64,000 nt of DNA from positions 46,612 through 110,611 of the forward strand of contig JBMOMC010000002.1 in assembly GCA_049325335.1 (NCBI GenBank), written 5' to 3'. Every line of letters starts with the position of its first letter. The first letter of the stretch is position 1. The DNA is from Nitrospirota bacterium. Its GTDB lineage: Bacteria > Nitrospirota > Nitrospiria > 2-01-FULL-66-17. The notes beneath the pieces are model-generated. The model was not told where the DNA came from. It ran no database searches and was given only the letters and a program-made list of their open reading frames with translations. Position numbers and translations under genes: made by a program. Shown in pieces: positions 3,541 to 38,103 of the stretch.

Positions 3541-3843
3541 ATGAGCGCCCCCCTGATGAGCACGTCTCCGCCTCATCCGTTGGTTGAGATCACGATTCTG
3601 GGACGATGTTATCGAGTGCGTCCCGATGTGTCTCTGGTGTGGGCGCTGTACGATGAGGGATTCATCACCGCGGCCAACCGATTTTGTTGGAACGGAACGT
3701 GTTTGTACTGCATGGTGACGGTGGTCTGGCCGAATACTACGGTCGCGGTGCGGAAAAAAGCGTGTGAGATCTTCCCTACCGCCGGGTTGAACGTGATTCG
3801 GCTCGGCGGGGAGTTTTCCGTGCCGGTCCGTCTCGCGTCGTGA
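3541..3843 (+). CDS. small (2Fe-2S)-binding domain protein
   Basis: C-x4-C-x2-C (CWNGTCLYC) plus a later Cys; stop TGA 3841-3843 overlaps the GTG start of the next gene (GTGA). Confidence 0.45.
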   Translation: MSAPLMSTSPPHPLVEITILGRCYRVRPDVSLVWALYDEGFITAANRFCWNGTCLYCMVTVVWPNTTVAVRKKACEIFPTAGLNVIRLGGEFSVPVRLAS

Positions 3844-5573
3844 AGCTCGATCTCGGTCCGTTTGCCGCGTTGGTGCGTCCCCACCGCGGCGCCATGGCGC
3901 AAGCCTCGCTGCTGGTCATGGGCGTGGCCGCGCTCAACCTCGCGTTGCTATGGCTCTTTCGGTATTTCTTCGACCATGTGTTGGTCCGCCACGACACCGC
4001 CGCGCTCGGTCGGATCATCTGGGCCTCGCTCGGCCTGTTTGCACTGCACAGCGCCTTGTCCTTGCGCCAACACGTGGTGTTGGCGCGCGTGGGACAGCGG
4101 ATCGTCACCGCGCTGCGGTTGCGGTTGGTGGAGCACCTAACCACGTTGTCATTGGATTTTTTCGTCAAACGACGGACCGGCGAGCTGATGTCGCGGGTGA
4201 CCAGCGACGTGGGCACGGTGCAACAGGTCGCGACCAACGTGCCCGTGGACTTGGCGAAACAGTCCGTGACGTTCGTGGGCGCGTTGGGGCTGCTCTTGTA
4301 CATGAATTGGCGGCTGTGTCTGGCCGTTCTCGCGGTGATCCCGTTGGTGGTGGTGGTCGCCCGTCTGTTCGGACGGCGGCTCAAGGCGCTCTCGACCGAG
4401 AGCCAGGACCGAGCTGCGGAGTCCGCGACGATCCTGGAGGAAATGTTGTCCGGCATCACGCTGGTGAAGTCGTTCGTGATGGAGCGACACGAGGTGGATC
4501 GACTCGGCGCGCAACTTGAGCGCGCGGACGCGGTGGCCGCCCGCCGCGCCGCGTTGGTGGGGGTGTTCGTGCCCGTGGTCACGGTCCTGACGCTGCTCGG
4601 CGCACTCGGCGTGTTGTGGTACGGCGGGGTGCAGGTGATCGCCGGCGCGATGAGTCCCGGCGATCTGGTCGCGTTTTTGTTGTACGGCGGCATTCTGATG
4701 GGACCGTTTTCCGCGGCGGCTCGCGTGTTTTCGCAGATCAAAGAGGCGCAGGGCGCAATGCAGCGGGTGACGGAGATCCTCAACGAACAGCCGATGGTTC
4801 GCGACGCCCCGGGCGCCGCCCGTCTGGGCGCGGTGAACGGTCGCGTGGAGGTCTGCGACGTCTCGTTCGCCTACGAGCCGGGACGATCGGTGTTGCGCGG
4901 CGTCTCGCTCACCGCGGAACCCGGGCAGATCGTGGCATTGGTCGGACCCAGCGGCGGCGGCAAATCCACGCTCGTTCATTTGTTACATCGGTTCTACGAT
5001 CCCTTGGAGGGGGCCATCTTGCTCGATGGCCGCGACCTACGGGCGATCCGGATGGCGGACCTGTACGCGCGGATCGCCTTCGTGCCGCAAGAGACGATGT
5101 TGTTCGGGGGGACGGTTGAAGAGAACATCCGGTTCGGTCGTCCGTCCGCGCGTCAGGACGAGGTGGCGGCGGCTGCGGAGGCCGCGCACGCGCACGGATT
5201 CATTCAGGCGCTGCCGAACGGGTACGGGACCGTGGTGGGGGAGAAGGGCGTGCGACTGTCCGGCGGGCAGCGACAACGGATCGCGATCGCGCGGGCGGTG
5301 CTCAAGGACCCGAGAATTTTGCTGTTGGATGAAGCCACGTCGGCGTTGGATAATGAATCCGAAGTGTTGGTGCAAGACGCGTTGGACCGCCTGATGAAGG
5401 GCCGCACCACGATCGTGGTCGCCCATCGGTTGTCCACCATCCAGCGCGCGGATCATATCCTGGTGTTGGATCAGGGGCGGATCGTGGAACGCGGCACGCA
5501 CGGCGAATTGTTGGCGAGCCGCGGGGTGTACCATCGTTTGTCGGTCGCGGTGTCGACGAGCGCGGGCGCATGA
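3840..5573 (+). CDS. ABC transporter, fused permease/ATP-binding exporter (MsbA-like)
   Basis: N-terminal six-helix TMD then Walker A GPSGGGKST, signature LSGGQRQRIAIARAV, Walker B ILLLDEATSALD. Confidence 0.85.
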   Translation: MKLDLGPFAALVRPHRGAMAQASLLVMGVAALNLALLWLFRYFFDHVLVRHDTAALGRIIWASLGLFALHSALSLRQHVVLARVGQRIVTALRLRLVEHLTTLSLDFFVKRRTGELMSRVTSDVGTVQQVATNVPVDLAKQSVTFVGALGLLLYMNWRLCLAVLAVIPLVVVVARLFGRRLKALSTESQDRAAESATILEEMLSGITLVKSFVMERHEVDRLGAQLERADAVAARRAALVGVFVPVVTVLTLLGALGVLWYGGVQVIAGAMSPGDLVAFLLYGGILMGPFSAAARVFSQIKEAQGAMQRVTEILNEQPMVRDAPGAARLGAVNGRVEVCDVSFAYEPGRSVLRGVSLTAEPGQIVALVGPSGGGKSTLVHLLHRFYDPLEGAILLDGRDLRAIRMADLYARIAFVPQETMLFGGTVEENIRFGRPSARQDEVAAAAEAAHAHGFIQALPNGYGTVVGEKGVRLSGGQRQRIAIARAVLKDPRILLLDEATSALDNESEVLVQDALDRLMKGRTTIVVAHRLSTIQRADHILVLDQGRIVERGTHGELLASRGVYHRLSVAVSTSAGA

Positions 5574-5996: not shown

Positions 5997-6668
5997 TCAC
6001 CCGCCGCAGAGGCGGTCGATCGGTTCCACGCGCGGGCCCTTGAGGTTGTCGCGCGCGGCGTCCGCGCAATCAAGACTCACCAAATACCGAACCAACTTGT
6101 CCAGCCCGGCGACGGTGAACGTCGCCTTGAAATGGGCGGGCATGGTGGATTCATCGGGCCGTTCGCGCTGCTCGAACCCCGGGACGATGAACGCGCTGGG
6201 GCGGAGGACGGACTCGCGGATGTATTCCTCGGGCGACCGAGCCGAAGCGCGGCCGGATCGGACCGCGGCTTGATACGCGGGGGAGGCCATCCGGCGCTCC
6301 GCGGTGACCTTGGGGAGTAAGAGAGGTCCTTCGACCCCGGATTGCGCGGTGAGGATTCCCGGGATCTGGTGGCACACGCCGCAACCCAGTTTGGTGATCA
6401 TTCGTTCTGGCGTGTCCTCGTCTTGCGCCACCACCGGTATCGATGCGGGCAACGTGTCAGAACCTGGAGTCGTCACGGGCCGCCCGGCTGGGATCGATAT
6501 CGGCGCGGGCGGGGCGAACCACGCATGCCATGCCGCATACCCTCCGACCACCAGCGCGGCGGACCCGACTCCGAGCGTGAGCCAACGGTACTCGGGGGTG
6601 CGAGCCGCGGTCGAGAGCAAGATGAGCGCCATCAGCAGAAACGGGACGGCGATCAGGACGGAGGTCAT
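5997..6668 (-). CDS. membrane-anchored mono-heme c-type cytochrome
   Basis: N-terminal TM helix and a single CxxCH motif (CGVCH); ATG at 6668, ORF-track start 6674 is GTG. Confidence 0.65.
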   Translation of the reverse strand: MTSVLIAVPFLLMALILLSTAARTPEYRWLTLGVGSAALVVGGYAAWHAWFAPPAPISIPAGRPVTTPGSDTLPASIPVVAQDEDTPERMITKLGCGVCHQIPGILTAQSGVEGPLLLPKVTAERRMASPAYQAAVRSGRASARSPEEYIRESVLRPSAFIVPGFEQRERPDESTMPAHFKATFTVAGLDKLVRYLVSLDCADAARDNLKGPRVEPIDRLCGG

Positions 6669-17220: not shown

Positions 17221-19008
17221 GTGGCTATACTTGGCCGCGTCGCGAGGGGAGCCGTTTGGTCGGTCTTCCTCGCGCTCTTACTTATCGCAGACATGGTGCA
17301 CGAACCCCTCAAGCCGGCATCTGTTGGAGCCCAGCTGGCACCCGAAAATCCTTTGGTCGAGTCCGCCCGCGAGGTGATGCGCGGGTTGGTCAAGGCCGTC
17401 AAAGCGTCGAAGATGTATCTGCCGGAGCACGAGATTTGCCGGAAGTTCCGAGACGATTTTGCAGGGCGGCTGTTGCGGCATCTGGACGAACAGGGCGACC
17501 TGGCGCTGACGGTCAAGGGGTGCGAGTTCTATGTCGGAGACACGCCGGTGTATGAGGAGCCCAACCGGTTCGAGAATCTGGCGTTTCGGTGTTCGTCGGA
17601 CGGCCTTTGTGAATTGGTCCTCCACCAGGGGCTGACGCGCGCAGACCTCGACCGGTTGTTGGATGTGCTCACGTCCGACGCGCGGCCGCTGGACAACGAC
17701 ATTGTCACTAGGTTGTGGGAGCAGCCGATTCCGCACGTCACGTATGAAGTGGCCGAGGTCGATGAAGCCTCGGATCGCGAGGTGGCGCTGTCATCCCGAC
17801 CGCCGGGCGCGAGATCGTTGTCCGAAGCCGCTGATGACGCTCCAGGGGCCGGGGCGCCCGCTCCTGAGCCGGAGGTCATTCCCGACTCGCTGCGTCATGA
17901 CAGTCCGGTGTTCACGCTGACGGATCAGGACATCGAGTTGCTGCAACGGCAAGTGGTGGAAGACAGCACGCAGGATTACGTGGGGCAGTTGATCGATATT
18001 CTGACGTCGATTCTGATGTTGGACGACGATGAGCAGTCGTTTCTGGAAGTGTTGCAGGTGTTGGACGACATTGTGGCCGCCAGCGTCACGCAGGATCGGT
18101 TCGAGCGCGCCAACGATATCGTGAGCCGGTTGTCGGCGTTGCGGGACGACGAGGTCAAGGTCTCGGCGCGCAGTCGCGAGTTGATTCGCGTAGTCTGGAC
18201 CCAGATGGGGAGTTGGGAGCGCGTGGCGCCCTTGGGGAATTCCCTCAGTCGGCAAGGCGCGTGGGAGTCGGACGCCATTGCGCGCTATCTGATCCAACTG
18301 CCGTCTTCCGCCGTGGACTCGCTGATCACTCTGCTCGATCACGTGCAGACCGCCAAAGGGCGACGGATCATTTGCGACGCGTTGACCGCGTTTGCGGGCG
18401 AGGCGCTGGACGCCATGCTCTCGCGGCTTCCGGAGGCGCCTTGGTACGTGGCGCGCAATCTGATCTATGTTCTGGGGCGCGTGAAGGATCCTCGTGCTCA
18501 GCCGGCATTGGAAACGTTCATGGGGCATGCCGATGTGCGCCTTCGCCGCGAAACGCTCAAGGCGTTGGAAGCGCTCGGCGCCGAGCGGCTGGCCGAGGCG
18601 CTTCCCCAGTGGTTGGGTGATGATGACGACGGGGTGCGACTGCACGTGCTTCGTTTGGCGCGCCGTCATCCATCGCGGGATCTTCTGGCGGCCTTGATCG
18701 CGGCGATCAATGACCGCGGGTTTGCCCACCGCAAGGACGCGGAACAGCGCGAGTGGTTTGATACGCTCGCGGATGTTGGGGGCGACGCGGCGTTGTCGCT
18801 GATCCGGCCGTGGTTGGAGCTGGGACGCGGGTGGCGGCAACTCTGGTCGGCGCGGCACGATGCGCGGGCGCGGCATGCCGTGGCGCTGGTGCGGCGAGTC
18901 GGGTCCTCCGCCGCGGTGGCGCTCTTGCGGGAAACCGTCGCGTCCGCGCGAGGGGACATCCGCGAGGAAGCGCGCCGCGCCCTGCAGGACCTGGAGCGTG
19001 CGGCGTGA
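17221..19008 (+). CDS. HEAT-repeat protein
   Basis: Repeated HEAT/PBS-lyase-like units in the C-terminal half; GTG start; stop overlaps next gene start. Confidence 0.7.
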   Translation: MAILGRVARGAVWSVFLALLLIADMVHEPLKPASVGAQLAPENPLVESAREVMRGLVKAVKASKMYLPEHEICRKFRDDFAGRLLRHLDEQGDLALTVKGCEFYVGDTPVYEEPNRFENLAFRCSSDGLCELVLHQGLTRADLDRLLDVLTSDARPLDNDIVTRLWEQPIPHVTYEVAEVDEASDREVALSSRPPGARSLSEAADDAPGAGAPAPEPEVIPDSLRHDSPVFTLTDQDIELLQRQVVEDSTQDYVGQLIDILTSILMLDDDEQSFLEVLQVLDDIVAASVTQDRFERANDIVSRLSALRDDEVKVSARSRELIRVVWTQMGSWERVAPLGNSLSRQGAWESDAIARYLIQLPSSAVDSLITLLDHVQTAKGRRIICDALTAFAGEALDAMLSRLPEAPWYVARNLIYVLGRVKDPRAQPALETFMGHADVRLRRETLKALEALGAERLAEALPQWLGDDDDGVRLHVLRLARRHPSRDLLAALIAAINDRGFAHRKDAEQREWFDTLADVGGDAALSLIRPWLELGRGWRQLWSARHDARARHAVALVRRVGSSAAVALLRETVASARGDIREEARRALQDLERAA

Positions 19009-20474
19009 CGCGCGGCGGGACTCCTCATCACGCGGCGCCCAAACTGTTCGATGCGGTCAAGGGCAGTCACATCCGAGACGAGAACCTGCACCGGATCGGC
19101 AAACGCCTCGTGTATCAAGTTCACATTCTCCTCAAGACCGCGCACATCCATTTGGCGGGCAACGTGGCGCTGAGTCAATCCGCGGACCGGCTGGTCAAGA
19201 CCGTCGTGGAGGTGCACGACTGGCGGGCCGAGCCCGTGTTGCGCCAGGACGGCGATCATGTATACCTCGATGACATTCGGCTCAAGGTTGATCTGGAAGG
19301 GTACATCGGGTTCAGCGAAGTGATCGCCGCTATGCAGGCGCGCGGGGTGGGAAGCGTTCGGTTCGACGCGGGCCTGAGCCCTGGAGACGTCATCGCGTTC
19401 GCGCACGAGTGGGCGACCGCCGCGACCACGACCGCGGAGGAACTGGGCGCGGCCCTGACCCGCGTTGGGGTGTCGCACGTGGAGGTTGCCCCGCCGCTGT
19501 CGGCCCGCGCGAAGCCGTCCCGCGAACACGAGAGCCAGAAAGCGGTGGCCAAACGCACCTACTTCCGCACGATCTCCGCCGTCGCGGAGGTGATGGAGAG
19601 CGTCAAACTCAAACAGGCGGTGGGCGTACGAAAGTCCAAACGCGTGGTGCAGGGCCTCGTGGACAACCTGTTGCAGGATGAGAACACCTTGCTGGGTCTC
19701 ACCACGCTGCGAAGCCACGACGAATACACGTACAGCCATTGCGTGAACGTCTGTATCCTCGCGCTCTCGATCGGTCAGCGGCTGGGTTATGAACGGACGC
19801 ACCTGTCCGAACTCGGCGTAGCCGCCCTGTTCCACGACGTGGGGAAGACGGACATTCCACTGGAGATCCTGAACAAGGCGGGGGATTTCACGCCGGAGGA
19901 CTGGCGGGTCATTCGGCGGCATCCCGTGTATGGCGTGAAAAGCCTGTTGCGCCTCAAGGGGCTCGACGACGTGTCCACGAAGATCGTGATCGCGGGATTC
20001 GAGCATCACCTCAATTATGACTTGTCGGGGTATCCCAAGATCGCAGTGCCGCGCAAACTCACCTTGTTCGGGCGGATCATCTCGCTCGCGGATTGTTACG
20101 ACGCCATGACCGCCTCGCGCGTGTACAGCCGGGTGCCGCTGTCGCCCGACAAGGCGTTGAGCCTCATGGCGGCCAAGGCCGGGACGGTGTACGACCCGTT
20201 ATTGCTCAAGGTGTTCGCCAACACGATGGGCGTGTACCCGGTGGGGACGATTGTGCGGTTCGACACCGGGGAACTGGCGGTGGTCGTCGGTGGCCACCAG
20301 TCCGCGGATCGCCGCGCGCATCCATTGGTCAAACTTATTCGTGACGCCTCGGGCCGCGAGGTGGACGGGGACACGATCGACCTCGCGGCCGCGAACGCGC
20401 GTCCGACGCGTCGGATCGTGGACACCGCGGACGCCCAGTCGCTCGGCATCGACCTCGCCCGGTACTTTCTGTAG
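19005..20474 (+). CDS. HD-GYP domain phosphohydrolase (putative c-di-GMP phosphodiesterase) with N-terminal sensor region
   Basis: HD motif (ALFHDVGK), HHLNYDLSGYP (GYP motif); GTG 19005 overlaps the HEAT gene stop (GTGA). Confidence 0.8.
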   Translation: MTRGGTPHHAAPKLFDAVKGSHIRDENLHRIGKRLVYQVHILLKTAHIHLAGNVALSQSADRLVKTVVEVHDWRAEPVLRQDGDHVYLDDIRLKVDLEGYIGFSEVIAAMQARGVGSVRFDAGLSPGDVIAFAHEWATAATTTAEELGAALTRVGVSHVEVAPPLSARAKPSREHESQKAVAKRTYFRTISAVAEVMESVKLKQAVGVRKSKRVVQGLVDNLLQDENTLLGLTTLRSHDEYTYSHCVNVCILALSIGQRLGYERTHLSELGVAALFHDVGKTDIPLEILNKAGDFTPEDWRVIRRHPVYGVKSLLRLKGLDDVSTKIVIAGFEHHLNYDLSGYPKIAVPRKLTLFGRIISLADCYDAMTASRVYSRVPLSPDKALSLMAAKAGTVYDPLLLKVFANTMGVYPVGTIVRFDTGELAVVVGGHQSADRRAHPLVKLIRDASGREVDGDTIDLAAANARPTRRIVDTADAQSLGIDLARYFL

Positions 20475-20600: not shown

Positions 20601-20897
20601 ATGAAGAAGCTCGTGGTGGTGCCCTTGATTGCCGCGCTGTTGATGCTGCCCTTGACCGGGTGTGAATCCAAAAAGCTCAAAGAGGAGAACGCGAGTCTGA
20701 AACAACAAGTGGACTCGTTGACCCAAGAGAAGAACGGGTTGGCGGCGAAGACCGACGAATTGAGCAAGTCCAACATGGACCTCCAGGCGAAGATCGGCGA
20801 CTTGGAAAAGAAGGTGGAAGAGTTGTCAAAGCCGAAACCGGCTCCGAAGCCCGCGGCGAAGGCGCCCGCCAAGAAAGCTCCGGCGAAGAAGAAGTAA
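20601..20897 (+). CDS. Lpp-like coiled-coil lipoprotein with Lys/Ala/Pro-rich tail
   Basis: Signal peptide + lipobox LTGC, heptad-like segment, tail KPKPAPKPAAKAPAKKAPAKKK; GGAGG 11 nt upstream of ATG 20601. Confidence 0.6.
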   Translation: MKKLVVVPLIAALLMLPLTGCESKKLKEENASLKQQVDSLTQEKNGLAAKTDELSKSNMDLQAKIGDLEKKVEELSKPKPAPKPAAKAPAKKAPAKKK

Positions 20898-20921
20898 GGC
20901 GGTTGTCGATGATGTGTCGCG

Positions 20922-20946
20922 AGGGCGGACCGATTCGGTCCGCCCT
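20922..20946 (+). terminator. hairpin terminator after lipoprotein gene
   Basis: AGGGCGGACCG att CGGTCCGCCCT, perfect 11-bp stem, followed by T-containing tract. Confidence 0.55.
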
Positions 20947-21043
20947 TCGTGTTGTGGCTCCGCGTCATTCGTGGGGTGGCGTAGGGCTGCTGGGTTCAGG
21001 GCTTTACACGGTTCTGCGGCCGGCAGTAGGATAGCGGGACCCG

Positions 21044-22540
21044 ATGGTTACGCCACGCCTCCGTTCCGCCGCCCCGCGCGGTCCGTTCCGCGCGTTCCAA
21101 CGTCTTCATCTCACCACCAAACTCCTCTTGATGATGGGAGTGCTGACCGTGCTATCGCTCGGTTCGGTCTTCCTGTTCTATGCGTATAATGAACGACTGC
21201 TCATTCGAGAGATTACCGAGAATGTGAACGATCTCTCATCCGCGATCCAGATCAGCGGCGAGGAATTGACCAGCCAGGCGTCCACCAACGAGGGCCGGCT
21301 TCAAGATTATGTGGGCCGGTTGACTAAAAAGGGCGTGCGGGAAATTTCCATCATCAGTAACTCCGAAAAGGTCATTGCCAGCTCAAACCCGACTCGCGTG
21401 GGCCAGAAAATCAACCCGCATCGCAAGGATTTGTTCATCACGGCGCGACTGGGCGAGGGCAACGCCGAAGGCGTTCAGACCCATAATCTCTTGGTGCCGA
21501 TTGTCGTGGACAAGCAACAGGTCGGCTACGCCCACATCATGTTGGTGATGGACGATTACGAGCGGCTGCTCCGGACGAATCTGATCAAACGGTTGATGGT
21601 GACGGGCGGGATCTTCGGGCTCGGAGCCGGACTGGTGCTGTTTTTGTCGTGGCGGTACACGCGTCCCATCTATCAGGTCGTTGCGGTCGCCAAGCAAGTG
21701 GCCGCGGGCAACCTGTCGGCCACGCTTCCTCAAGACCGCGGCGACGAAATCGGCGAGCTGATTGCCAGCGTGAACGAGATGGTCGATCGGCTCAGAGAGC
21801 AGCGCGCCTTGGAAGACCGGCTGCGCGAGGCCGAGCGGTTTTCGGCGTTGGGGCAGCTCGCGGCTGGGATTGCCCACGAGATCCGCAATCCACTGAATTT
21901 CATCAGCCTGTCCCTCGACCGCGTTCGAGATCTCGTCAAGCGGGAGGATGGCGGCCGATCCGATGAGATCCCGGCGCTCCTCGGGAGTATCAAGGGCGAG
22001 GTGTTCCGGCTCAATCGCCTGATCGATAGTTTTTTGAAGTACGGGCGTCCGGTGAAGCTGGCGCGGCAGTGGGTGTCGGTGCGCGCGCTGCTGGACGACG
22101 TGATCGCGCTGGTCCGCCCGAAAGCGGATGAAGCCCGCGTGGCGCTGTCGGTGGACGGGGAGTCCCTTCCGCCGTGTTTCGTGGATCCCGAGCAGATCAC
22201 CCGGTGCGTCATGAACGTGATGCTCAATGCCTTTCAGTCGATGCCGGACGGCGGGAGACTGCGCGTGGTCTTGGCCTTGGAGCCCGGGGGCGACGAGTCC
22301 GTCGGGCGGTTCGTGCGGCTGGCAATCGGGGACACCGGGGCCGGTATCGGAGAAGAGGACTTGTCCCGGGTGTTCGAACCGTATTTTACGACCAAGAAGC
22401 TGGGCATCGGTCTGGGACTAGCCCTGACCAAGCAGATTATCGAAGAACACGGCGGGACGATCGCGATTGCCAGCCGGATCGGCGAGGGAACCACGGTCTC
22501 GATGCGGGTGCCGGTCGGACGCGACGAGGCGCGCGGATGA
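21044..22540 (+). CDS. sensor histidine kinase (TM-HAMP-HisKA-HATPase)
   Basis: H-box HEIRNPLNFIS, N/G boxes (DTGAGIGEED, GIGLGL). Confidence 0.85.
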   Translation: MVTPRLRSAAPRGPFRAFQRLHLTTKLLLMMGVLTVLSLGSVFLFYAYNERLLIREITENVNDLSSAIQISGEELTSQASTNEGRLQDYVGRLTKKGVREISIISNSEKVIASSNPTRVGQKINPHRKDLFITARLGEGNAEGVQTHNLLVPIVVDKQQVGYAHIMLVMDDYERLLRTNLIKRLMVTGGIFGLGAGLVLFLSWRYTRPIYQVVAVAKQVAAGNLSATLPQDRGDEIGELIASVNEMVDRLREQRALEDRLREAERFSALGQLAAGIAHEIRNPLNFISLSLDRVRDLVKREDGGRSDEIPALLGSIKGEVFRLNRLIDSFLKYGRPVKLARQWVSVRALLDDVIALVRPKADEARVALSVDGESLPPCFVDPEQITRCVMNVMLNAFQSMPDGGRLRVVLALEPGGDESVGRFVRLAIGDTGAGIGEEDLSRVFEPYFTTKKLGIGLGLALTKQIIEEHGGTIAIASRIGEGTTVSMRVPVGRDEARG

Positions 22541-23901
22541 CGCGATCGCTGCTGGTGGTGGACGACGAGCGCTCGCAACGCGAGATTCTGGAGCGTATTC
22601 TTCGCGACGAGGGGTACGAGGTGCGCACCGCGGGGACGGCGCGGGAGGCGGCCTCGATTCAGCGCCGTGGTCCGTGTGACGTCGTCCTGAGCGACGTGAA
22701 GATGCCGGACACCGAGGGGGTGTCCGTGCTGAACGATCTGCTCGGCGCGGCGCCAAACTCGACCGTGATCCTGATGACCGCGCACGGAACGATCGACTCC
22801 GCGGTGGACGCGATGAAAAAGGGCGCGTTCGACTACCTGACGAAGCCGCTGGATAAGGATGAGTTGCTGATCACCATCGCGCGGGCGTTCGAGCGCGTGA
22901 GCCTCTTGCGGGAGAACCGGCGGCTGCGCCAAGAACTAGATGACCGCGTTCGGGTCGGAAGCCTCATCGGACACCACCCGTCGATGCAGGACATCATCAA
23001 GGTCATCAAGAAGGTGGCGCCCAGCGCGTCGACCGTCTTGATCGTGGGTGAGAGCGGCACCGGCAAAGAGCTCATTGCGCGCGCGATTCATGATGAGAGC
23101 CCCCGACGGGAGCTGCCGTTTCAGGCGATCAACTGCGCGGCCATTCCCGATCCGCTGATGGAAAGCGAACTGTTCGGCTATGAGAAGGGGGCGTTCTCCG
23201 GCGCGCAGACTCGCAGCATCGGCCTCTTCGAGGCGGCTCACCGCGGGACGATCTTCCTGGATGAGATCGGCGACCTCGGGCTCGGTCTGCAGGCGAAAAT
23301 CTTGCGCACGTTGCAGGAGCGGACGATTCGCCGGGTCGGGGGACAAGAAGAAGTCCCGATCGACGTTCGCGTGGTGGCGGCGACCAACAAAGACCTCGAA
23401 GCGGAGATCACCGCGGGTCGGTTCCGTCTGGATCTGTTCTATCGCCTCAACGTGGTGACGCTCCGGGTGCCGCCGCTTCGCGAGCGTACGGCGGACATCC
23501 CGTACCTGGTCGACGCGTTTCTTCACAAACACGAGGGTATGGACCGTGGCGCCAAGACCATCTCGAAAGACGCACTGCGCGTGCTGATGGACTATCCGTG
23601 GCCGGGCAACGTCCGTCAGTTGGCCGCGACCATCGAGCGCGCGGTACTGCTCTGCGAGAAAGATGAAATTCAGGTGGATGATCTCCCGCCGGAAATCCGT
23701 CGGCCGCCGTCTCCGCTTCCCACCCCGTTTCAACTCCCGGTCGGCGGCGTGTCGCTCGATCAGCTCGAACGATCCTTGATCGAACAGGCGATGGCTCAGA
23801 GTCATGGAGTGATCGCCAAGGCCGCCCGTCTCCTCGGGCTCTCATACAAGACGCTCCAATATCGGCTCGAGAAGTTGCGGGCCGCCGACCCGCCGACCTG
23901 A
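22537..23901 (+). CDS. sigma-54-dependent response regulator (NtrC family)
   Basis: Receiver domain, AAA+ domain with GESGTGKE and GAFSGA, C-terminal HTH; ATG overlaps kinase stop (ATGA). Confidence 0.9.
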   Translation: MTRSLLVVDDERSQREILERILRDEGYEVRTAGTAREAASIQRRGPCDVVLSDVKMPDTEGVSVLNDLLGAAPNSTVILMTAHGTIDSAVDAMKKGAFDYLTKPLDKDELLITIARAFERVSLLRENRRLRQELDDRVRVGSLIGHHPSMQDIIKVIKKVAPSASTVLIVGESGTGKELIARAIHDESPRRELPFQAINCAAIPDPLMESELFGYEKGAFSGAQTRSIGLFEAAHRGTIFLDEIGDLGLGLQAKILRTLQERTIRRVGGQEEVPIDVRVVAATNKDLEAEITAGRFRLDLFYRLNVVTLRVPPLRERTADIPYLVDAFLHKHEGMDRGAKTISKDALRVLMDYPWPGNVRQLAATIERAVLLCEKDEIQVDDLPPEIRRPPSPLPTPFQLPVGGVSLDQLERSLIEQAMAQSHGVIAKAARLLGLSYKTLQYRLEKLRAADPPT

Positions 23902-24014
23902 ACACCCCAAATGGGGTAGGCGGTCGCCGCATTTCGGGTATCGCGGCGGCCACGCGTTCGGGCCACGGTTTGCAACTCTCTCGATTGCCGAGTGTTTTAA
24001 CCCCGTCATGCTCC

Positions 24015-24030
24015 TGGCACGCCCTATGCT
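24015..24030 (+). promoter_or_regulatory. sigma-54 (-24/-12) promoter candidate
   Basis: TGGCACGcccTATGCT: GG and GC at correct 12-nt spacing, about 35 nt upstream of ATG 24066. Confidence 0.5.
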
Positions 24031-24065
24031 GTAGCGAGCTGTTTCAAGAAAGGAGGTGATGTCAG

Positions 24066-24329
24066 ATGAAGCAGTGGCTCAAGAGTGTGTGCGCGATGGC
24101 GGCGGTGTTGGTGTTCGCGGCGGCGGCGTATGCCGGGATGACCTCGGTCAGCGGCGAGGTCGCCAAGTACGAAGCCGGGAAGACCCTCTCGGTCAAAGAC
24201 GCCAAGGGCGCGGTGGCGATGTTCGAGATCTCCAAGGACACGAAGGTCGAAGGCGAGGTGAAAGTTGGCGCCAAGGTGTCCGTGGAGGCTGATGGAAACA
24301 AGGCCCATTCGGTCAAAGCGGCCAAATAA
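24066..24329 (+). CDS. small secreted protein of unknown function
   Basis: 87 aa, signal peptide (AAVLVFAAAAYA), strong AGGAGG RBS. Confidence 0.6.
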   Translation: MKQWLKSVCAMAAVLVFAAAAYAGMTSVSGEVAKYEAGKTLSVKDAKGAVAMFEISKDTKVEGEVKVGAKVSVEADGNKAHSVKAAK

Positions 24330-24364
24330 CGGTCGGGTCTGATTCCGGCACGGTACGGTAGGGG

Positions 24365-24393
24365 CGCCGATCCTCTCGGGAGGGGGATCGGCG
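24365..24393 (+). terminator. hairpin after small secreted protein gene
   Basis: CGCCGATCC / 11-nt loop / GGATCGGCG. Confidence 0.45.
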
Positions 24394-24470
24394 GCGCGCG
24401 CCGCACGGGCTTGCTTCCTTCTACCGTACCTGCCGGACGGCCTTGGCGTGAACACGACGGGAGACGCAAG

Positions 24471-24806
24471 ATGATGATGCGACGGGTGATGCCGTGGGTG
24501 GCGATCGGGCTGGTGGCCGTGTTGCCGATCCTCGGAGGTTGTGAAAGCAAACAACAACGGGAGGACAACGCAAAACTCAAGGCGCAGGTCCAAGCGTTGA
24601 CGCAGGAGAAGGGCGAGTTGCAACGCAAGGTGGACGGCGCGCAACAAGAGCAGGCTCAGCTCAAGACGAAAGTCGATGAGTTGACGAAAAAAATCAGCGA
24701 CGCGGAGGCCAAGCTGGCCGCGGCGGCCAAGCCCGCTCCCAAGGCGGCGAAAGTAACGGTCAAGCCGGCGGCCAAACCCGCCCCCAAACCGGCGGTCAAA
24801 AAGTAA
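24471..24806 (+). CDS. Lpp-like coiled-coil lipoprotein, paralog of 20601..20897
   Basis: Lipobox LGGC followed by ESK as in paralog; shared LTQEK motif; tail KPAPKAAKVTVKPAAKPAPKPAVKK. Confidence 0.6.
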   Translation: MMMRRVMPWVAIGLVAVLPILGGCESKQQREDNAKLKAQVQALTQEKGELQRKVDGAQQEQAQLKTKVDELTKKISDAEAKLAAAAKPAPKAAKVTVKPAAKPAPKPAVKK

Positions 24807-24873
24807 CCGTATCGAGCATCGGTTCTACCGAAGGGGCTTGCCTGGTCCGGCAGGCCCCTCGTGTATCAAGACC

Positions 24874-24901
24874 GAACAACGATTGACAGCAGCCGATTCG
24901 C
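24874..24901 (+). promoter_or_regulatory. sigma-70-type promoter candidate upstream of FHA gene
   Basis: TTGACA - 16 nt - TATATT, about 45 nt upstream of GTG 24946. Confidence 0.4.
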
Positions 24902-24945
24902 CTCTATATTTGTGATGGCTGGATCTGCCGCCCGAGGAAACGATC

Positions 24946-25323
24946 GTGTTAGACCCCGAACAAACCATTCGTCCGGACCTTTCCCACCCGTATTTGCCGG
25001 GGCGAGAACCCGCGTATCCGTTGTTGCGCGTGTTGAGCGGGCCGCTGGAGGGGCGCGAGTTTACCCTGACGGCCGATCGGTACGCGGTGGGCCGTGACGT
25101 GCAATCGGATATCGTCATCGCGCAGCCGGAGGTCTCTCGCCGGCACGCCGAGATCATTCGGATGGCCAGCGAATACGTGGTGATGGACCTCAAAAGCGCC
25201 AACGGGATTTACATCAATAATTTGAAACTCGATCGAGCCGTGTTGCACCACGGCGACGTGTTCCAGATCGGCTCCTGTGTGTTTCAGTTCATCTGGAGCC
25301 GACACCAGTCGTCACCGCCGTAA
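24946..25323 (+). CDS. FHA domain protein
   Basis: FHA signature GR...DIVI...VSRRHAEI...DLKSANGIYIN...L..GDVFQIG. Confidence 0.75.
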   Translation: MLDPEQTIRPDLSHPYLPGREPAYPLLRVLSGPLEGREFTLTADRYAVGRDVQSDIVIAQPEVSRRHAEIIRMASEYVVMDLKSANGIYINNLKLDRAVLHHGDVFQIGSCVFQFIWSRHQSSPP

Positions 25324-25326
25324 CGC

Positions 25327-26952
25327 ATGGGCCGGCGCACACCCGCCAAGGGACGGTCGCGACGCCCGAGGGCGTCTCCACGGACGGCCGCGACGCCGTC
25401 GAAGCTCTCCACGCTCCTGGAACACCTCCCCGGCATGATGTATCGGTCGCGGGCCGACGGGCGTCACACGATCGAGTTCGCGAGCGAGGGGTGTTTCGAC
25501 TTGACCGGGTATCGCCCCGAGGCGTTGACGGCCGGGATGACGAGGCCGGATCTGGTCCATCCCGACGACCAATGGTCCGTGGAGCGCGCCATTGGAGACG
25601 CGGTGGGCGCCAAACGCGCGTTTCGGGTGGAGTACCGATTGCGGACCGCGTCCGGGGAGACGCGGTGGGTCTCCGAGCAGGGGCGGGGAGTGTACACCCG
25701 TCGCGGCGCGCTCACCGCGGTGGAAGGCTACGTCAGCGACATCACGGAGCAGAAATCGGCCGAGCGGTTGCTGGCCGAGCAGGCGATCCGCGATGCGCTG
25801 ACCGGTTTGTACAACCGCCGATTTTTCGACGAACGCATCGACATTGAGTTGGCCCGCGCCAGACGCAACGGCCACGCCGTCGCGTTTTTGATGTGCGATC
25901 TTGATCATTTTAAATCCATCAACGACAGCCGGGGGCATCAGATCGGCGACGAGGTGCTCAAGGCCGTGGCCAACGTGATCATGGCGGCCACGCGCGGCAG
26001 CGACATGGTCGTGCGGTGGGGGGGCGATGAAGTCGTCATCGTATTGTCCGAAACGAACGAAGCCGGCGGCCGTATCGTGGCCGACCGCATTCGGCGGGCG
26101 GTGTGTCGGCTGAGCGAGGCCCGGGACATCCGGTTCGACATCAGCATCGGGATCGCGGTGTTCCCGAGCCACGGCGAATCCGTGAGCCAGATCATTCGGC
26201 TCGCCGACCGCGCGCTGTATATCGCCAAAAAAAGCGGGGAGCGCATCCATGTCGGGGACGAACACTACCGGTTGGACGAACAGGCCATCAAAGTGGTGTT
26301 TCAGCCGATTGTGGACGTCTGGTCCGACCAGGTGTTGGGATACGAAGCCCTGAGCCGAGACCCCGAGGGCCGGTTGAGCGTGGCCGAGTTGTTTCGCAAG
26401 TACCACGTGGTGGGTCAACTCGACGAACTCAAAACGATCTGTTTCAAGGAGCAGTTGCGGGTCGCGGAGGAACTCCGATTGAACCGGATTTTCCTGAACG
26501 TGGATTTCCACGTCTTGGAACATCTGGAACCGCCGCCCAAGCCGGACGGCACCGACGTCATCGTCGAAATCTCCGAGCGCGACGCGCTCCACGACGTGGA
26601 GCGGCATTTGGAGATCGCGGTGAAGTGGCGCGCGTGCGGCTACAAGTTCGCCATCGACGATTTCGGCGCGGGCTTCGTGTCGCTGCCGTTCGTGGCGCGG
26701 CTGATGCCCGAGTACATCAAGATCGACCGATCGCTGGTGCTCCAAGCCGTGGCGTCGGACACATTTAAGGGGTTTTCCAAACATCTCCTAATCGCCTTGA
26801 GGACCTATGCCACCGAGGGGATCATCGCCGAGGGGATCGAAACGGAACGAGAACTGGCGGCGATGAAGGGGATCGGGATTTTTATCATCCAAGGGTTTCT
26901 TTTGGGGCGTCCCCGGGCATTGGGGCCGGACCAGTCCGCCGACGCCGCGTAG
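25327..26952 (+). CDS. PAS-GGDEF-EAL protein (variant GGDEV motif; EAL residues intact)
   Basis: PAS region, GGDEF domain with RWGGDEV, EAL domain with YEALSR, DDFGAGF, EGIETE, QGF. Confidence 0.85.
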   Translation: MGRRTPAKGRSRRPRASPRTAATPSKLSTLLEHLPGMMYRSRADGRHTIEFASEGCFDLTGYRPEALTAGMTRPDLVHPDDQWSVERAIGDAVGAKRAFRVEYRLRTASGETRWVSEQGRGVYTRRGALTAVEGYVSDITEQKSAERLLAEQAIRDALTGLYNRRFFDERIDIELARARRNGHAVAFLMCDLDHFKSINDSRGHQIGDEVLKAVANVIMAATRGSDMVVRWGGDEVVIVLSETNEAGGRIVADRIRRAVCRLSEARDIRFDISIGIAVFPSHGESVSQIIRLADRALYIAKKSGERIHVGDEHYRLDEQAIKVVFQPIVDVWSDQVLGYEALSRDPEGRLSVAELFRKYHVVGQLDELKTICFKEQLRVAEELRLNRIFLNVDFHVLEHLEPPPKPDGTDVIVEISERDALHDVERHLEIAVKWRACGYKFAIDDFGAGFVSLPFVARLMPEYIKIDRSLVLQAVASDTFKGFSKHLLIALRTYATEGIIAEGIETERELAAMKGIGIFIIQGFLLGRPRALGPDQSADAA

Positions 26953-35263: not shown

Positions 35264-38103
35264 CGTTCAGCCGCCAAGAGCCTGTCAATGATTGACGAGA
35301 GCGGTTTAGCCGTCAACGTCTCGACATCGATATTCGAAGTGAGTCGCTCGGTTCGCTCTGGACGTTTGTAGAGCGCGGGCCGCAATTCCGCCAGCCGGTC
35401 GTAACTCTTCTTGACCCACTCGTTGTAGGCTCCCGGTTGGCTCGACGCCCGCTGCACGTTGCTGGCATACGCCTGAATCGCCTTTTCTTCAAACGGGAAC
35501 GCTTTCTCTTCCAGTTGGAACTTGTACTCGTCCACCTGTTCCGGGGTGAGTTTCTTCGGGAGTTCGGCTTCGAGCAGCGCGGTCTTGAAGTGTTCGAACA
35601 CCTCGCCCAGGCGGTACGCGGACGTGGCAACCACCTCCTGGTATCGCGTCTCCGCGGCCCGTGTGTAGAGCGTGATCGTCTTGTCCAACGCCTGAGTCTT
35701 ATTTTTGAGGTTCTTTTTGAACGGCTCCCTCAGGGCGATTTTTTTAAGCGACCGGAACGACTCCTCGGCCTGGTGGAACACGGCTTGCGCCGCGAACTGG
35801 GTGCCGGGTGCCTGTTGTTCCACCTCCGTGAACAGCTTGAGGGCCTCCATGGTCTTCCCCTGGCGCTGCCGGATCATGGCCATCTTCCACCAACCTTCAG
35901 GCGCATCCGGGTGTTTGGGGAACCGCTCGGTGAATTGCGCGAAGACCGCGTAGCTCTTGTCCCATTGGGAGGCCTTTTCGTAATCGACACCGGCGGTCCA
36001 GAGAATCTGTGGCGCCTGCGCGTGGTGTTGGGGTAACGTGGCCGCGGCTTCGAAAGCCTCGGCGGCTTCGCCCCACTGTTCACCTTGTTCGTAAATCAAG
36101 GCGGTTTGGAGCGCGGCTTTTGCGCCGAGGTCGGACGTGGGGTCGCGCTGGACCAGTTGCTGGTAGGCGGCGATCGCCTCGCGCGGCTGCTTGAGCGTTT
36201 CGTACAGACTCGCCGCCTCGAACAACGCGTCGGCCGCCAAGGGGCTCTCCGGGGCTTCGCGCGAGATGGCGGCAAACGTCTTGGCCGCGTCGCTGAGCCG
36301 ATTGGCCTTCTTGTGCTGCTCTCCCTGCTTGTACATGGCCGCGGCCAACAGATCGTTCATCTCGCGCTGCTGGGCCTTGTCCGCTGTCGGGAGGAGCGAC
36401 AGGGTCAGCGCGTACGCCGCGCGAGCCTCGTCGAAACGGCCTTGCCGCATATAGGAGTGGGCGATCAACTTCTGCGCGGTGGCGGTGCCCGTGAAATTGG
36501 GATACCGGGACAAGACCTGCCCCAACATCTCGCGCGCCTCGGCATCGCGTTGCTGGTCGAACAGGATCTCGCCGGACTTGAGCAAGACCGTGGGCGTCCG
36601 GGCATCCTTCGGGAACTGATCCGCGAACCGTTTCGTCAACGCGACGAATCGCTCGTGGCCCTTCTTGTCCTGAAGTTTTTCCGCGGCCACGATGGCGGAG
36701 TACGCGGGTTCTTTGTCCGCCGCGACTCCGGGATAGCTGTAGGCCACGGCTTCGTACGCCGCGGCCGCCTGCGCATACTCCTGCAACGCCATCAGGGATT
36801 CGGCGTACAGCAGATGGACTTCCCGCGTGTCCTTTTCCTCAGGGAACTCCGCGAGGAACTGGCGATACCATCCGACTGCTTCCCGATACTGCTCGGCCTG
36901 TTTGCTCTCCCGCGCAGCGGCATGCGCGGACACCCCGAGCCGGTACAGACTGTCTTTGACCAAGGGGCGCGAGCGGGCTCGACCGGCCTCGTCGGTGGCC
37001 TTGTACCAGACGCTGGTGCTCAGGTACCCGTTCACGAGTGCGATTCTGGCGTCACGCGCGGCTTCGGGATCCCTCTCCTTCTCGTACGCCTCGATGACAT
37101 ACGACGCGAAGATGGGCGCCATGTCGTGCATGGGATGCTGTTGTACGAACGTCCGGTAGGTCGCAATCGCCTGCTGCCGGTTCCCCTCACCCAGATATTG
37201 GTTCCCCATCATGAGGTAGAGATCTTTCTCGTAGAGCGCGATCCCGTGTTGTTTGAAATAGTCGGCCATGGGTTGCGGCCCGCCCAACCCCCGGAATGAA
37301 ATAGCCACGTACGTCAGCGCTTCCCACACGAGGGACCCGGAGTCGGCGGCCGTGGCCGGTTGTCCGGCGGTCTTCTTGTCCACGAGGTACAAGAACTGAT
37401 CGACCGCGTGCGGGTATGCGCGGAGATTGAAGTAGGTCCACCCGAGTTTGTACCGGGCCCGGTCTTGAAGGACCGGATCGTCGAGCCCAATCGTCTGCTC
37501 ATAGGCGTCAGCCGCCTGCTCGAATCGACGGCCGTCAAAGTCGGATTCGCCGATACGGAAATATGCTTCCTGGAGGTGGGGACTGGTCGGGTATTCCGCG
37601 ACCAACTTACTGAGCAACGGCTGGGCCAGGTCCCGACGCCCGGTCTCCGAGTAGGCACGGGCCAGACCGTACAGCACGTCGTCCTGCGCATGAAATGTCG
37701 GATCGGTTTCGAGCAACGTCCGGTAGGTCGTGATCGCGTCGTCGTAATTGACCAGCGGCGGGGGGCCTTGTGGGTCCTTCTCATACGCCTCCATCGCCGA
37801 GAGAAATTGCTGGTGCGCGCGTTCAAGATACAGATCCCCGAGCCGTTTGAGTGCCTCGGATCGCAGGACGGGGTCCACGGTTCCGTAATCCTTGAGAAAG
37901 CCTTCATACCCTGTGATCACGTCGGCTTTGCGAACCACGGGCAACGGCGCGCTCGAAGCCGCGTTTACGGCCTCCGAGTCCACGCGCAACACGCCGTGAT
38001 CCTTCGCGCTTGCGCAGGCCGTCAGCAGGCATGTGAGGCCGGCGAGAGACCACGTGGTCGCGGTGTGAAAAACACGGTGTTTCATTGGCTCGCCATATCC
38101 CAC
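35260..38103 (-). CDS. large TPR-repeat protein (947 aa), secreted
   Basis: Signal peptide then TPR-like helical repeats throughout. Confidence 0.8.
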   Translation of the reverse strand: MGYGEPMKHRVFHTATTWSLAGLTCLLTACASAKDHGVLRVDSEAVNAASSAPLPVVRKADVITGYEGFLKDYGTVDPVLRSEALKRLGDLYLERAHQQFLSAMEAYEKDPQGPPPLVNYDDAITTYRTLLETDPTFHAQDDVLYGLARAYSETGRRDLAQPLLSKLVAEYPTSPHLQEAYFRIGESDFDGRRFEQAADAYEQTIGLDDPVLQDRARYKLGWTYFNLRAYPHAVDQFLYLVDKKTAGQPATAADSGSLVWEALTYVAISFRGLGGPQPMADYFKQHGIALYEKDLYLMMGNQYLGEGNRQQAIATYRTFVQQHPMHDMAPIFASYVIEAYEKERDPEAARDARIALVNGYLSTSVWYKATDEAGRARSRPLVKDSLYRLGVSAHAAARESKQAEQYREAVGWYRQFLAEFPEEKDTREVHLLYAESLMALQEYAQAAAAYEAVAYSYPGVAADKEPAYSAIVAAEKLQDKKGHERFVALTKRFADQFPKDARTPTVLLKSGEILFDQQRDAEAREMLGQVLSRYPNFTGTATAQKLIAHSYMRQGRFDEARAAYALTLSLLPTADKAQQREMNDLLAAAMYKQGEQHKKANRLSDAAKTFAAISREAPESPLAADALFEAASLYETLKQPREAIAAYQQLVQRDPTSDLGAKAALQTALIYEQGEQWGEAAEAFEAAATLPQHHAQAPQILWTAGVDYEKASQWDKSYAVFAQFTERFPKHPDAPEGWWKMAMIRQRQGKTMEALKLFTEVEQQAPGTQFAAQAVFHQAEESFRSLKKIALREPFKKNLKNKTQALDKTITLYTRAAETRYQEVVATSAYRLGEVFEHFKTALLEAELPKKLTPEQVDEYKFQLEEKAFPFEEKAIQAYASNVQRASSQPGAYNEWVKKSYDRLAELRPALYKRPERTERLTSNIDVETLTAKPLSSIIDRLLAAER

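Follow-up and report, generated by a model that had tools for sequence, protein, structure and literature searches.

The stretch of DNA considered here, referred to throughout as the window, consists of 64,000 nucleotides (64 kb) of contig JBMOMC010000002.1 of a Nitrospirota bacterium (assembly GCA_049325335.1). Between positions 23905 and 24437, immediately downstream from the genes of a sensor histidine kinase and an NtrC-type response regulator, it contains what appears to be a compact sigma-54-dependent transcription unit, in which a palindrome and a -24/-12 promoter precede the gene of a small secreted protein and a structured 3' element. The features of this unit and of the two regulatory genes, numbered from the first letter of the window, are the following.

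21044..22540, + strand: sensor histidine kinase (Pfam HAMP 2.3e-15, HisKA 3.6e-11, HATPase_c 6.6e-21)
22537..23901, + strand: NtrC-type response regulator of the bacterial enhancer-binding protein (bEBP) type (Pfam Sigma54_activat 7e-70, Response_reg 5.4e-28, HTH_8 3.8e-14)
23905..23938, no strand assigned: candidate enhancer (upstream activating sequence), an imperfect 34-bp palindrome CCCCAAAT-N18-ATTTCGGG, recognized by cross-locus comparison
23965..24000, no strand assigned: spacer with the semi-conserved motifs YAAC...TG and a T-tract (23995-23998), from the anchored alignment of 16 loci
24015..24030, + strand: -24/-12 promoter element TGGCACgccctaTGCT, from the consensus match and conservation across homologous loci
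24050..24060, + strand: extended Shine-Dalgarno sequence AAGGAGGTGAT, 11 nt, within an unstructured leader of only some 25 nt
24066..24329, + strand: gene of the small secreted protein, 87 aa, with the stop codon at 24327-24329, the signal peptide encoded by 24066-24134, and the mature protein of about 64 aa by 24135-24326
24344..24437, + strand: conserved branched RNA-like element, from its fold and an RNAalifold alignment of 10 loci

A first-pass annotation of the window had described a properly spaced TGGCAC-N5-aTGCT element some 35 nt upstream of the ATG of an 87-aa signal-peptide protein with a strong ribosome-binding site, directly downstream from a sigma-54 activator gene, in a compact sensor-regulator-target layout. 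This description was sustained in all of these respects. The kinase, regulator, and small genes follow one another in that order, and the regulator, with its receiver, Sigma54_activat, and HTH_8 domains, adjoins the unit. The end of the motif is separated from the ATG by 35 nt, the core of the motif recurs at the homologous loci, and both the signal peptide and the extended Shine-Dalgarno sequence are conserved.

The promoter element is formed by TGGCAC (24015-24020), the spacer gccct, and aTGCT (24026-24030), and the surrounding sequence reads ctccTGGCACgccctaTGCTgtagcgagctgtttcaagaAAGGAGGTGATgtcagATG. The GG at 24016-24017 and the GC at 24028-24029 have the GG-N10-GC geometry, with a single mismatch to TGGCAC-N5-TTGCW, the sigma-54 consensus that Barrios and colleagues are said to have compiled in 1999. 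The window contains four matches to this consensus with at most one mismatch, in comparison with 1.58 expected, a number that was reached in 6 of 100 shuffles, and for the relaxed promoter pattern the base composition predicts about 1.3 matches in the window by chance. The other three one-mismatch matches, at 6616-6631 (- strand), 37613-37628 (- strand), and 56897-56912 (+ strand), all lie within long open reading frames and are probably the product of chance, and only the match at 24015 is both intergenic and correctly oriented. As motif statistics are insufficient as the sole evidence, the support for the promoter was taken from its position and its conservation.

This conservation was evaluated in a set of 17 homologous Nitrospirota loci (individual loci are identified by L numbers), each with a full-length homologue of the small protein; the collection scans for the small gene provided 4 loci in genomes and 11 in metagenomes. 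The pattern [T/G]GGCAC-N5-xTGCT is present in all 17 loci, at a distance of 46-51 nt between the GG and the start codon, and of 57 nt in L006, whose tblastn match begins elsewhere than the start codon. When the 16 non-redundant loci are anchored on the motif and aligned without gaps, GGCAC and TGCT are invariant, while the adjoining columns carry almost no information. Over the approximately 300 kb formed by the window and all the recovered loci, read on both strands, the pattern is confined to the promoter position, apart from one additional match (L013:464). The comparison thus provides strong support for the interpretation of TGGCAC-N5-aTGCT as a real sigma-54 promoter under selection, from which, by the standard -12 geometry, transcription would start near 24040-24042.

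The motif might also be fortuitous, with the small gene being transcribed through read-through from the kinase and regulator genes, or from an unrecognized housekeeping promoter, given that about one match per window is expected by chance and that the promoter types of the Nitrospirota are poorly characterized. This explanation is very improbable, however, as the 17 loci share the position of the motif and its invariant core between divergent flanks, and the motif is kept even behind unrelated upstream genes and an upstream terminator. In addition, no sigma-70-like site was found in a scan of positions 23500-24066.

The second element of the putative sigma-54 promoter region lies within the interval 23902-24014, where the first-pass annotation had suggested looking for enhancer-binding inverted repeats. 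The palindrome found there, at 23905-23938, begins 3 nt past the stop codon of the regulator, and its center lies 94 bp upstream of the -24 GG, at about -118. It occurs once in the window (0.09 expected), with a family consensus half-site of approximately CGCCGnATTTCnGG. It was missed by a generic repeat finder, which recovered only GC-rich repeats of 8-9 nt in 23850-24100, and was revealed by the comparison of the loci. Fourteen of the 16 loci with sufficient upstream sequence have kept the palindrome, with a center-to-GG distance of 93-95 bp and an internal spacer of 18 bp, the exceptions being L019 (17 bp) and L013 (20 bp). Both the palindrome and its spacing are maintained with or without an adjacent regulator gene, despite the divergence of the spacer sequence, and in L002 and L003 it takes the form of a perfect 14+14 inverted repeat, CCCGAAATACGGCG-N6-CGCCGTATTTCGGG. 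A position near -118 is typical of the enhancers of bEBPs, which are expected some 80-150 bp upstream of the promoter; the palindrome is considered a candidate enhancer-type site for a protein of this class.

The same sequence could, alternatively, form a hairpin in the transcript, functioning as the terminator or stabilizer of the upstream gene, in which case the small gene would use other sites, or none at all. The palindrome does abut the stop codon of the regulator in the window, and the perfect inverted repeat of L002 and L003 would fold as RNA, but in these two loci, which belong to a group that lacks the kinase and regulator genes (arrangement B, described below), it sits downstream from the separate, canonical terminator hairpin of the preceding lipoprotein gene. 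The palindrome has no U-tract, and its distance from the -24 element stays within 1 bp of the same value in lineages with diverged spacers. In the loci with an adjacent regulator, moreover, the arms are non-complementary at several positions while the outer AAAT/ATTT blocks are retained, a conservation of sequence rather than of pairing, which agrees more closely with a site bound by a protein than with a hairpin in RNA. The hairpin explanation is therefore improbable, and the palindrome is treated here as the candidate enhancer. Between it and the promoter, the 16-locus alignment has a conserved T-tract column and a loosely conserved YAAC, and the segment at 23965-24000 may represent a DNA-bending or IHF-type site; no good match to the consensus of the integration host factor (IHF) was found in the spacer by eye.

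Downstream from the promoter, the leader folds less well than shuffled sequences (z = +1.78). The Shine-Dalgarno sequence AAGGAGGTGAT, which is almost perfectly complementary to the usual 3' end of the bacterial 16S rRNA, is conserved as GG(A/G)GGTGAT in all the loci, and GGAGGTGAT occurs three times in the window (0.55 expected), before the small gene, before the lipoprotein gene lipo1, and at one intragenic site. The ATG at 24066 is the only one in frame in the small gene. The signal peptide, MKQWLKSVCAMAAVLVFAAAAYA|GM, is of the typical Sec type, with cleavage at AYA|G. This AXA cleavage site, together with the lack of a lipobox and of a pilin leader, led to the rejection of the small protein as a lipoprotein or type IV pilin.

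The 21 homologues of the small protein are 63-89% identical to it, and all come from Nitrospirota metagenomes and metagenome-assembled genomes. In the alignment of the 22 sequences of the family, conservation falls mostly on Gly, Lys, Glu, Asp, and Tyr residues, and Met25 is nearly invariant. AlphaFold2, run on this alignment, returned five strands with a mean pLDDT (predicted local distance difference test) score of 75, and about 85 over the mature part, and the fold predicted for the mature protein is a closed OB barrel of five strands. The best Foldseek match is the metallochaperone CusF (E = 5e-3, TM score 0.56-0.63), and the family profile found no relatives among the PDB sequences. A CusF-type metal site is not supported, as there is no conserved His/Met/Met (+Trp) set, nor a His/Met/Cys cluster, and no CusF match was obtained in Pfam or by sequence.

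No Pfam family was found for the small protein. A search with the family profile among 1.84 billion cluster representatives recovered 153 clusters at E <= 1e-3, many of them secreted proteins in which the domain is repeated in tandem 2-9 times, with Pro/Ala/Lys-rich linkers, and reached a protein with six copies of DUF5666 plus DUF5667. The ExtJ model (NF040942) matches 21 of the 22 family members, with a best E value of 3.3e-7, although all fall below the cut-off (19.9 versus 52.5 bits for the protein in the window), and the gene-cluster context of ext is absent. Sub-threshold matches were also obtained with the PraB model (15 of the 22 members) and, weakly, with DUF5666 (PF18914; 5 of the 22, best E = 0.003), for which the protein in the window has no match. 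Membership in ExtJ, PraB, or DUF5666 was rejected, given that all of these matches fall below the curated thresholds. The ZraP/CpxP/Spy family was rejected as well, as there was no Pfam match and the predicted fold is all-beta rather than of the helical LTXXQ type. At the locus of the distant homologue P0142 (L027), no -24/-12 element was found, which indicates that the link with sigma-54 is specific to the subfamily.

Sigma-54 regulons have been linked to the cell exterior by comparative work (PMC3162934). Given this link, together with the periplasmic sensor kinase, the Lpp-like lipoproteins encoded nearby, the strong ribosome-binding site, and the unstructured leader, the best guess is that the small protein takes part in an envelope response, as a binder or effector in the periplasm.

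The small gene had been described in the first-pass annotation as being followed by a hairpin, which captured the strong fold that exists at this point and understated it, as the structure is a conserved, branched element (24344..24437; minimum free energy -75.2 kcal/mol, z = -3.8). Its outer stem, GGTACGGTAGG/CCTTCTACCGTACC, is lengthened in the window by CCGGCA/TGCCGG, and encloses an inner hairpin, CCGATCCTCTCGGGAGGGGGATCGG, with a Shine-Dalgarno-like GGGAGG in the loop, followed by a variable second hairpin. The inner hairpin has the invariant sequence CGGGAGGGGG(G)ATCGG and the invariant loop CGGGAGGGGGGATCGG, while the outer stem has compensatory double changes at 6 of its 13 pairs in the 10-locus alignment. 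These ten loci cover both of the gene arrangements described below, and extend down to 54% identity of the small protein; the element is found at 6303-6399 in L002, 6284-6378 in L003, 5155-5247 in L004, 6278-6373 in L019, 2960-3054 in L020, 4142-4236 in L024, and 7314-7399 in L013. Plain hairpins take its place in L001, L005, L009, L010, and L011.

The search of Rfam with the leader and the 3' element found no family, the best match for the element being psbNH, at 16.8 bits against a gathering threshold of 45 (E = 0.29). No intrinsic terminator was reported in the scan of 23500-25000, and the element is branched and lacks a U-tract. A dispersed repeat of the REP (repetitive extragenic palindromic) type was rejected, as the element is single-copy in the window. 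In arrangement B, the sigma-70-like promoter of the following FHA gene lies directly behind the element (TTGACA...TATAGT in L002 and L003), which marks it as the end of the unit in those loci. On a conservative reading, the 3' element is a terminator or stabilizer, and it is possible that it is a specific regulatory RNA.

The kinase has two predicted transmembrane segments, read off the translation, which flank a periplasmic domain of about 130 aa, at approximately residues 48-180, and has a weak Pfam match to sCache_3_2. It is under every NCBIfam equivalog cut-off, the nearest models being AtoS and ZraS (180 versus 479 bits for ZraS). The regulator has intact Walker A (GESGTGKE), Walker B (FLDE), and receiver (DVKMPD) motifs, and its REC, AAA+, and Fis-type HTH architecture identifies it as a putative bEBP of the NtrC family. 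Compared with the NCBIfam equivalogs (ZraR, AtoC, NtrC, PilR, etc.), it scores below all the cut-offs, the best being AtoC (460.6 versus 714 bits), with 375 versus 760 bits for ZraR. A motif scan of the six-frame translation of the 64 kb found no other GAFTGA-like motif or bEBP-like gene.

In the wider surroundings of the unit, four further features were recognized.

20601..20897, + strand: Lpp-like lipoprotein lipo1, a paralogue of lipo2, with the same extended Shine-Dalgarno sequence and a terminator hairpin of its own; bounds the kinase-regulator cassette on the upstream side
24471..24806, + strand: Lpp-like lipoprotein lipo2, with lipobox LGGC, a coiled coil, and a tail that is rich in Lys, Pro, and Ala and ends in KK
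24833..24858, + strand: GC-rich hairpin behind lipo2, where the transcription unit probably ends
24883-24910, + strand: sigma-70-like promoter of the FHA gene, TTGACA-16-TATATT, from the promoter scan

Two arrangements of these genes recur. Arrangement A (HEAT-HD-lipo1-kinase-regulator-small gene-lipo2-FHA-PAS/GGDEF/EAL) is found, either whole or up to the limit of the contig, in the window and in L005, L009, L010, L019, L020, and L023. In arrangement B (HEAT-HD-lipo1-small gene-FHA-GGDEF/EAL; L002, L003, L004, and L024), the kinase-regulator cassette is precisely absent, the palindrome and the promoter coming straight after the lipo1 terminator, and lipo2 is missing as well. Genomes of this type include the assemblies GCA_040757335.1 and GCA_040960215.1. 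The junctions of this presence or absence lie at 5760-5850 in L002 and 5710-5845 in L003, and were also seen in L004 and L024, corresponding to 20898-23904 in the otherwise syntenic window. Other copies of the small gene are found in unrelated contexts (L001/L008, L006, and L011-L014). One metagenome-assembled genome, JACXTT01, has two copies, one of type A (L009) and the other an orphan (L001/L008) that lies between the genes of a giant Calx-beta/laminin-G protein and an AI-2E transporter; both copies have the promoter and the palindrome, and a regulator is found next to one of them only.

The first-pass annotation had also taken the small gene to be a likely target of the adjacent regulator, a claim that is plausible but inferred. 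In roughly half of the lineages the kinase and regulator genes lie beside the small gene, in seven loci from two clades of the small protein, and in the rest they are precisely absent; at least seven loci have no such regulator nearby. A similar logic is found at the distant, Syntrophaceae-like locus L018, where a kinase and an NtrC-type regulator (46% identity) are followed by a correctly spaced sigma-54-like site, TTGGTATTTTTCTTGCG (TGGTAT-N5-TTGCG, at 3364-3380), a leader of approximately 290 nt that contains repeats, and the genes of a coiled-coil lipoprotein, a tiny lipoprotein, and a homologue of the small protein that has 139 aa and carries extensions rich in Lys, Pro, and Glu. As the only bEBP-like gene found in the window by the motif scan, and given the same logic at this distant locus, the adjacent regulator is favored as the activator of the small gene, which we regard as moderately likely on the evidence of adjacency and synteny.

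The principal alternative is that the promoter and palindrome are real, but are activated by a bEBP encoded in trans, while the adjacent pair would control something else or share the palindrome. The relatives of the regulator fall into two tiers, with a few orthologues of at least 76% identity and then, after a gap down to about 62%, a large Nitrospirota group of approximately 60% identity. A member of this group sits in a kinase-regulator-coiled-coil-lipoprotein operon (L025 and L026), where no sigma-54 promoter or palindrome was found within about 6 kb, so that its targets must be in trans, which makes this paralogue a credible alternative activator, and the best candidate. The alternative is also favored by the arrangement-B and orphan loci, where the palindrome is more perfect and no regulator is adjacent, by the two copies in JACXTT01, and by the near-identity of the HTH recognition region in the two groups. 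By contrast, it is the specific regulator clade (at least 76% identity) that recurs beside the small gene in two clades of the small protein, the palindrome starts just past the stop codon of this regulator, and nothing places a regulator of the 60% group in the arrangement-B genomes; the adjacent gene is, in addition, the only one of its type found in the window. An activator in trans, alone or alongside the adjacent regulator, is thus possible, but unlikely, and the adjacent regulator is retained as the preferred activator in what follows.

Under this reading, the membrane kinase would sense a periplasmic or envelope signal and phosphorylate the NtrC-type regulator, which would then form oligomers at the palindrome and open the closed complex of the sigma-54 holoenzyme by looping the DNA and hydrolyzing ATP. 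This would result in a tight off/on control, and the production of high levels of the small periplasmic protein, while read-through past the U-less 3' structure would probably also yield the Lpp-like lipoprotein encoded at 24471-24806. The theme would be that of an envelope response, in which the small protein would act in the periplasm as a binder or a chaperone-like effector, and might also modulate the kinase by feedback. Taken as a whole, the interpretation of 23905-24437 as a sigma-54-dependent unit (palindrome, promoter, leader, gene of a Sec-exported OB-barrel protein, and structured 3' element) that operates by this mechanism is considered probable, with some reservation. The analysis shows the sequence elements with their conservation and spacing, the domains, the predicted fold, and the synteny; the start of transcription, the dependence on sigma-54, the identity of the activator, the co-transcription of the lipoprotein gene, and the function of the small protein are inferred.

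A number of points weigh against this interpretation. The promoter motif, when taken alone, is no better than chance in a 64-kb window with a GC content of 63%, and the rpoN gene is not in the window, so that its presence in this genome is an assumption. The outer half-sites of the palindrome are 26 bp apart, center to center, an uncommon spacing for one Fis-type HTH dimer. The sigma-54 contact (L1) loop of the regulator (residues 218-223, 23188-23205) is GAFSGA, not GAFTGA. This variant is found in all the close orthologues of the regulator, while the paralogues of the 60% group have GAFTGA; Thr-to-Ser variants of the loop can stay active, and GAFSGA is therefore no argument against the function of the regulator. 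The recognition helix of the 60% group is nearly the same (SYKTMQYRLEK versus SYKTLQYRLEK). In L002, L003, L004, L024, L001, L006, and L013, the palindrome and the promoter are kept with no regulator within 6-7 kb, which indicates that adjacency is not required, and that the adjacent regulator is not the only possible activator. Finally, the small protein has no homologue of known function to support the role proposed for it.

Beyond the unit itself, lipo2 has weak matches to Lpp/alanine-zipper and coiled-coil models, and shares 41% identity with lipo1. The segment from 24330 to 24470 yielded no promoter-like site, and the terminator-like hairpin lies after lipo2, which suggests that this gene is probably co-transcribed by partial read-through from the sigma-54 promoter.

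Lpp-like lipoproteins, with a lipobox, a coiled coil, and a Lys-rich C-terminus ending in Lys, recur beside NtrC-type two-component systems. Such genes are found at 20601-20897 and 24471-24806 in the window, at 7427-7756 in L025 (60% group), and at 3663-3983 in the Syntrophaceae-like L018. This recurrence suggests that the two-component system and the Lpp-like lipoprotein are partners in function.

The wider neighborhood (17221-20474 and 24946-26952), which is also conserved, encodes HEAT-repeat, HD_5 (HD-GYP-like), FHA-domain, and PAS-GGDEF-EAL proteins. This composition hints at a link between the unit and signaling by cyclic di-GMP.

A broader proposal would be that the kinase, regulator, Lpp-like lipoprotein, and OB-barrel protein constitute an undescribed envelope-monitoring module under sigma-54 control, present in the Nitrospirota and at least one Syntrophaceae-like lineage. 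The barrel would be its inducible effector or feedback ligand, and the 3' element a new cis-acting or 3'-UTR-derived RNA (from the 3' untranslated region, UTR) that sets the ratio of the small protein to the lipoprotein. This proposal is speculative, and rather doubtful in its full extent.

The Nitrospirota are environmentally important, and the regulation of their genes has hardly been studied experimentally. The locus supplies a clean sigma-54 promoter, validated by the comparison of loci, a candidate enhancer of defined sequence, and a one-gene output that is usable as a reporter of the signal of the kinase. It also adds a number of uncharacterized elements, that is, a family of small secreted OB-barrel proteins that often occur as tandem repeats, the association of this family with an Lpp-like lipoprotein, and an unannotated structured RNA-like element. 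The regulatory logic is that of the textbook, and the unit is well supported but fairly ordinary, and overturns nothing in the current understanding of these systems. The least expected features are the RNA-like element at the 3' end and the recurrent pairing of the two-component system with the Lpp-like lipoprotein.

A close parallel among the known systems is found in ZraSR-ZraP, which is involved in the envelope stress response of E. coli and Salmonella, where a periplasm-sensing kinase and a sigma-54 activator of the NtrC family control the gene of a small periplasmic protein that adjoins their own genes. Of the named NCBIfam models, ZraS and ZraR rank with the highest scorers for the kinase and the regulator, although the scores are far below the cut-offs. 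The target differs, however, being a predicted all-beta OB barrel rather than a helical protein of the ZraP/CpxP/Spy type, with no conserved metal-binding motif, and the small gene follows the regulatory genes in the same direction, rather than diverging from them. CusF, a periplasmic Cu(I)/Ag(I) metallochaperone, resembles the small protein at the level of the fold only, and is controlled by the OmpR-type two-component system CusRS, whereas the regulator in the present case is of the sigma-54 type.

The only sequence families with any signal for the small protein are ExtJ, DUF5666, and PraB. As none of these families has an established molecular mechanism, the similarity adds no function. ExtJ, encoded in the extHIJKL cluster of Geobacter sulfurreducens, is likewise presented as a small protein of the periplasm (PMC6148476), and differs from the present case in that there are no cytochrome or porin genes near the small gene.

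The lipoproteins lipo1 and lipo2 are similar to Lpp/OprI in their lipobox, short coiled coil, and C-terminal lysine, with weak matches to the alanine-zipper model, although the scores are below the cut-off (20.5 versus 43 bits), and the long Lys/Pro/Ala tail distinguishes them. In the case of the promoter region, the NtrC/NifA-type glnAp2 and nifH systems share with this locus the GG-N10-GC geometry, a dyad site some 100-130 bp from the start, a conserved intervening T-tract, and an activator of the REC-AAA+-HTH_8 type. The differences are a single 34-bp palindrome, with outer half-sites 26 bp apart, in place of tandem 17-bp sites, a -12 element of the form xTGCT rather than TTGCW, and the GAFSGA loop of the activator.

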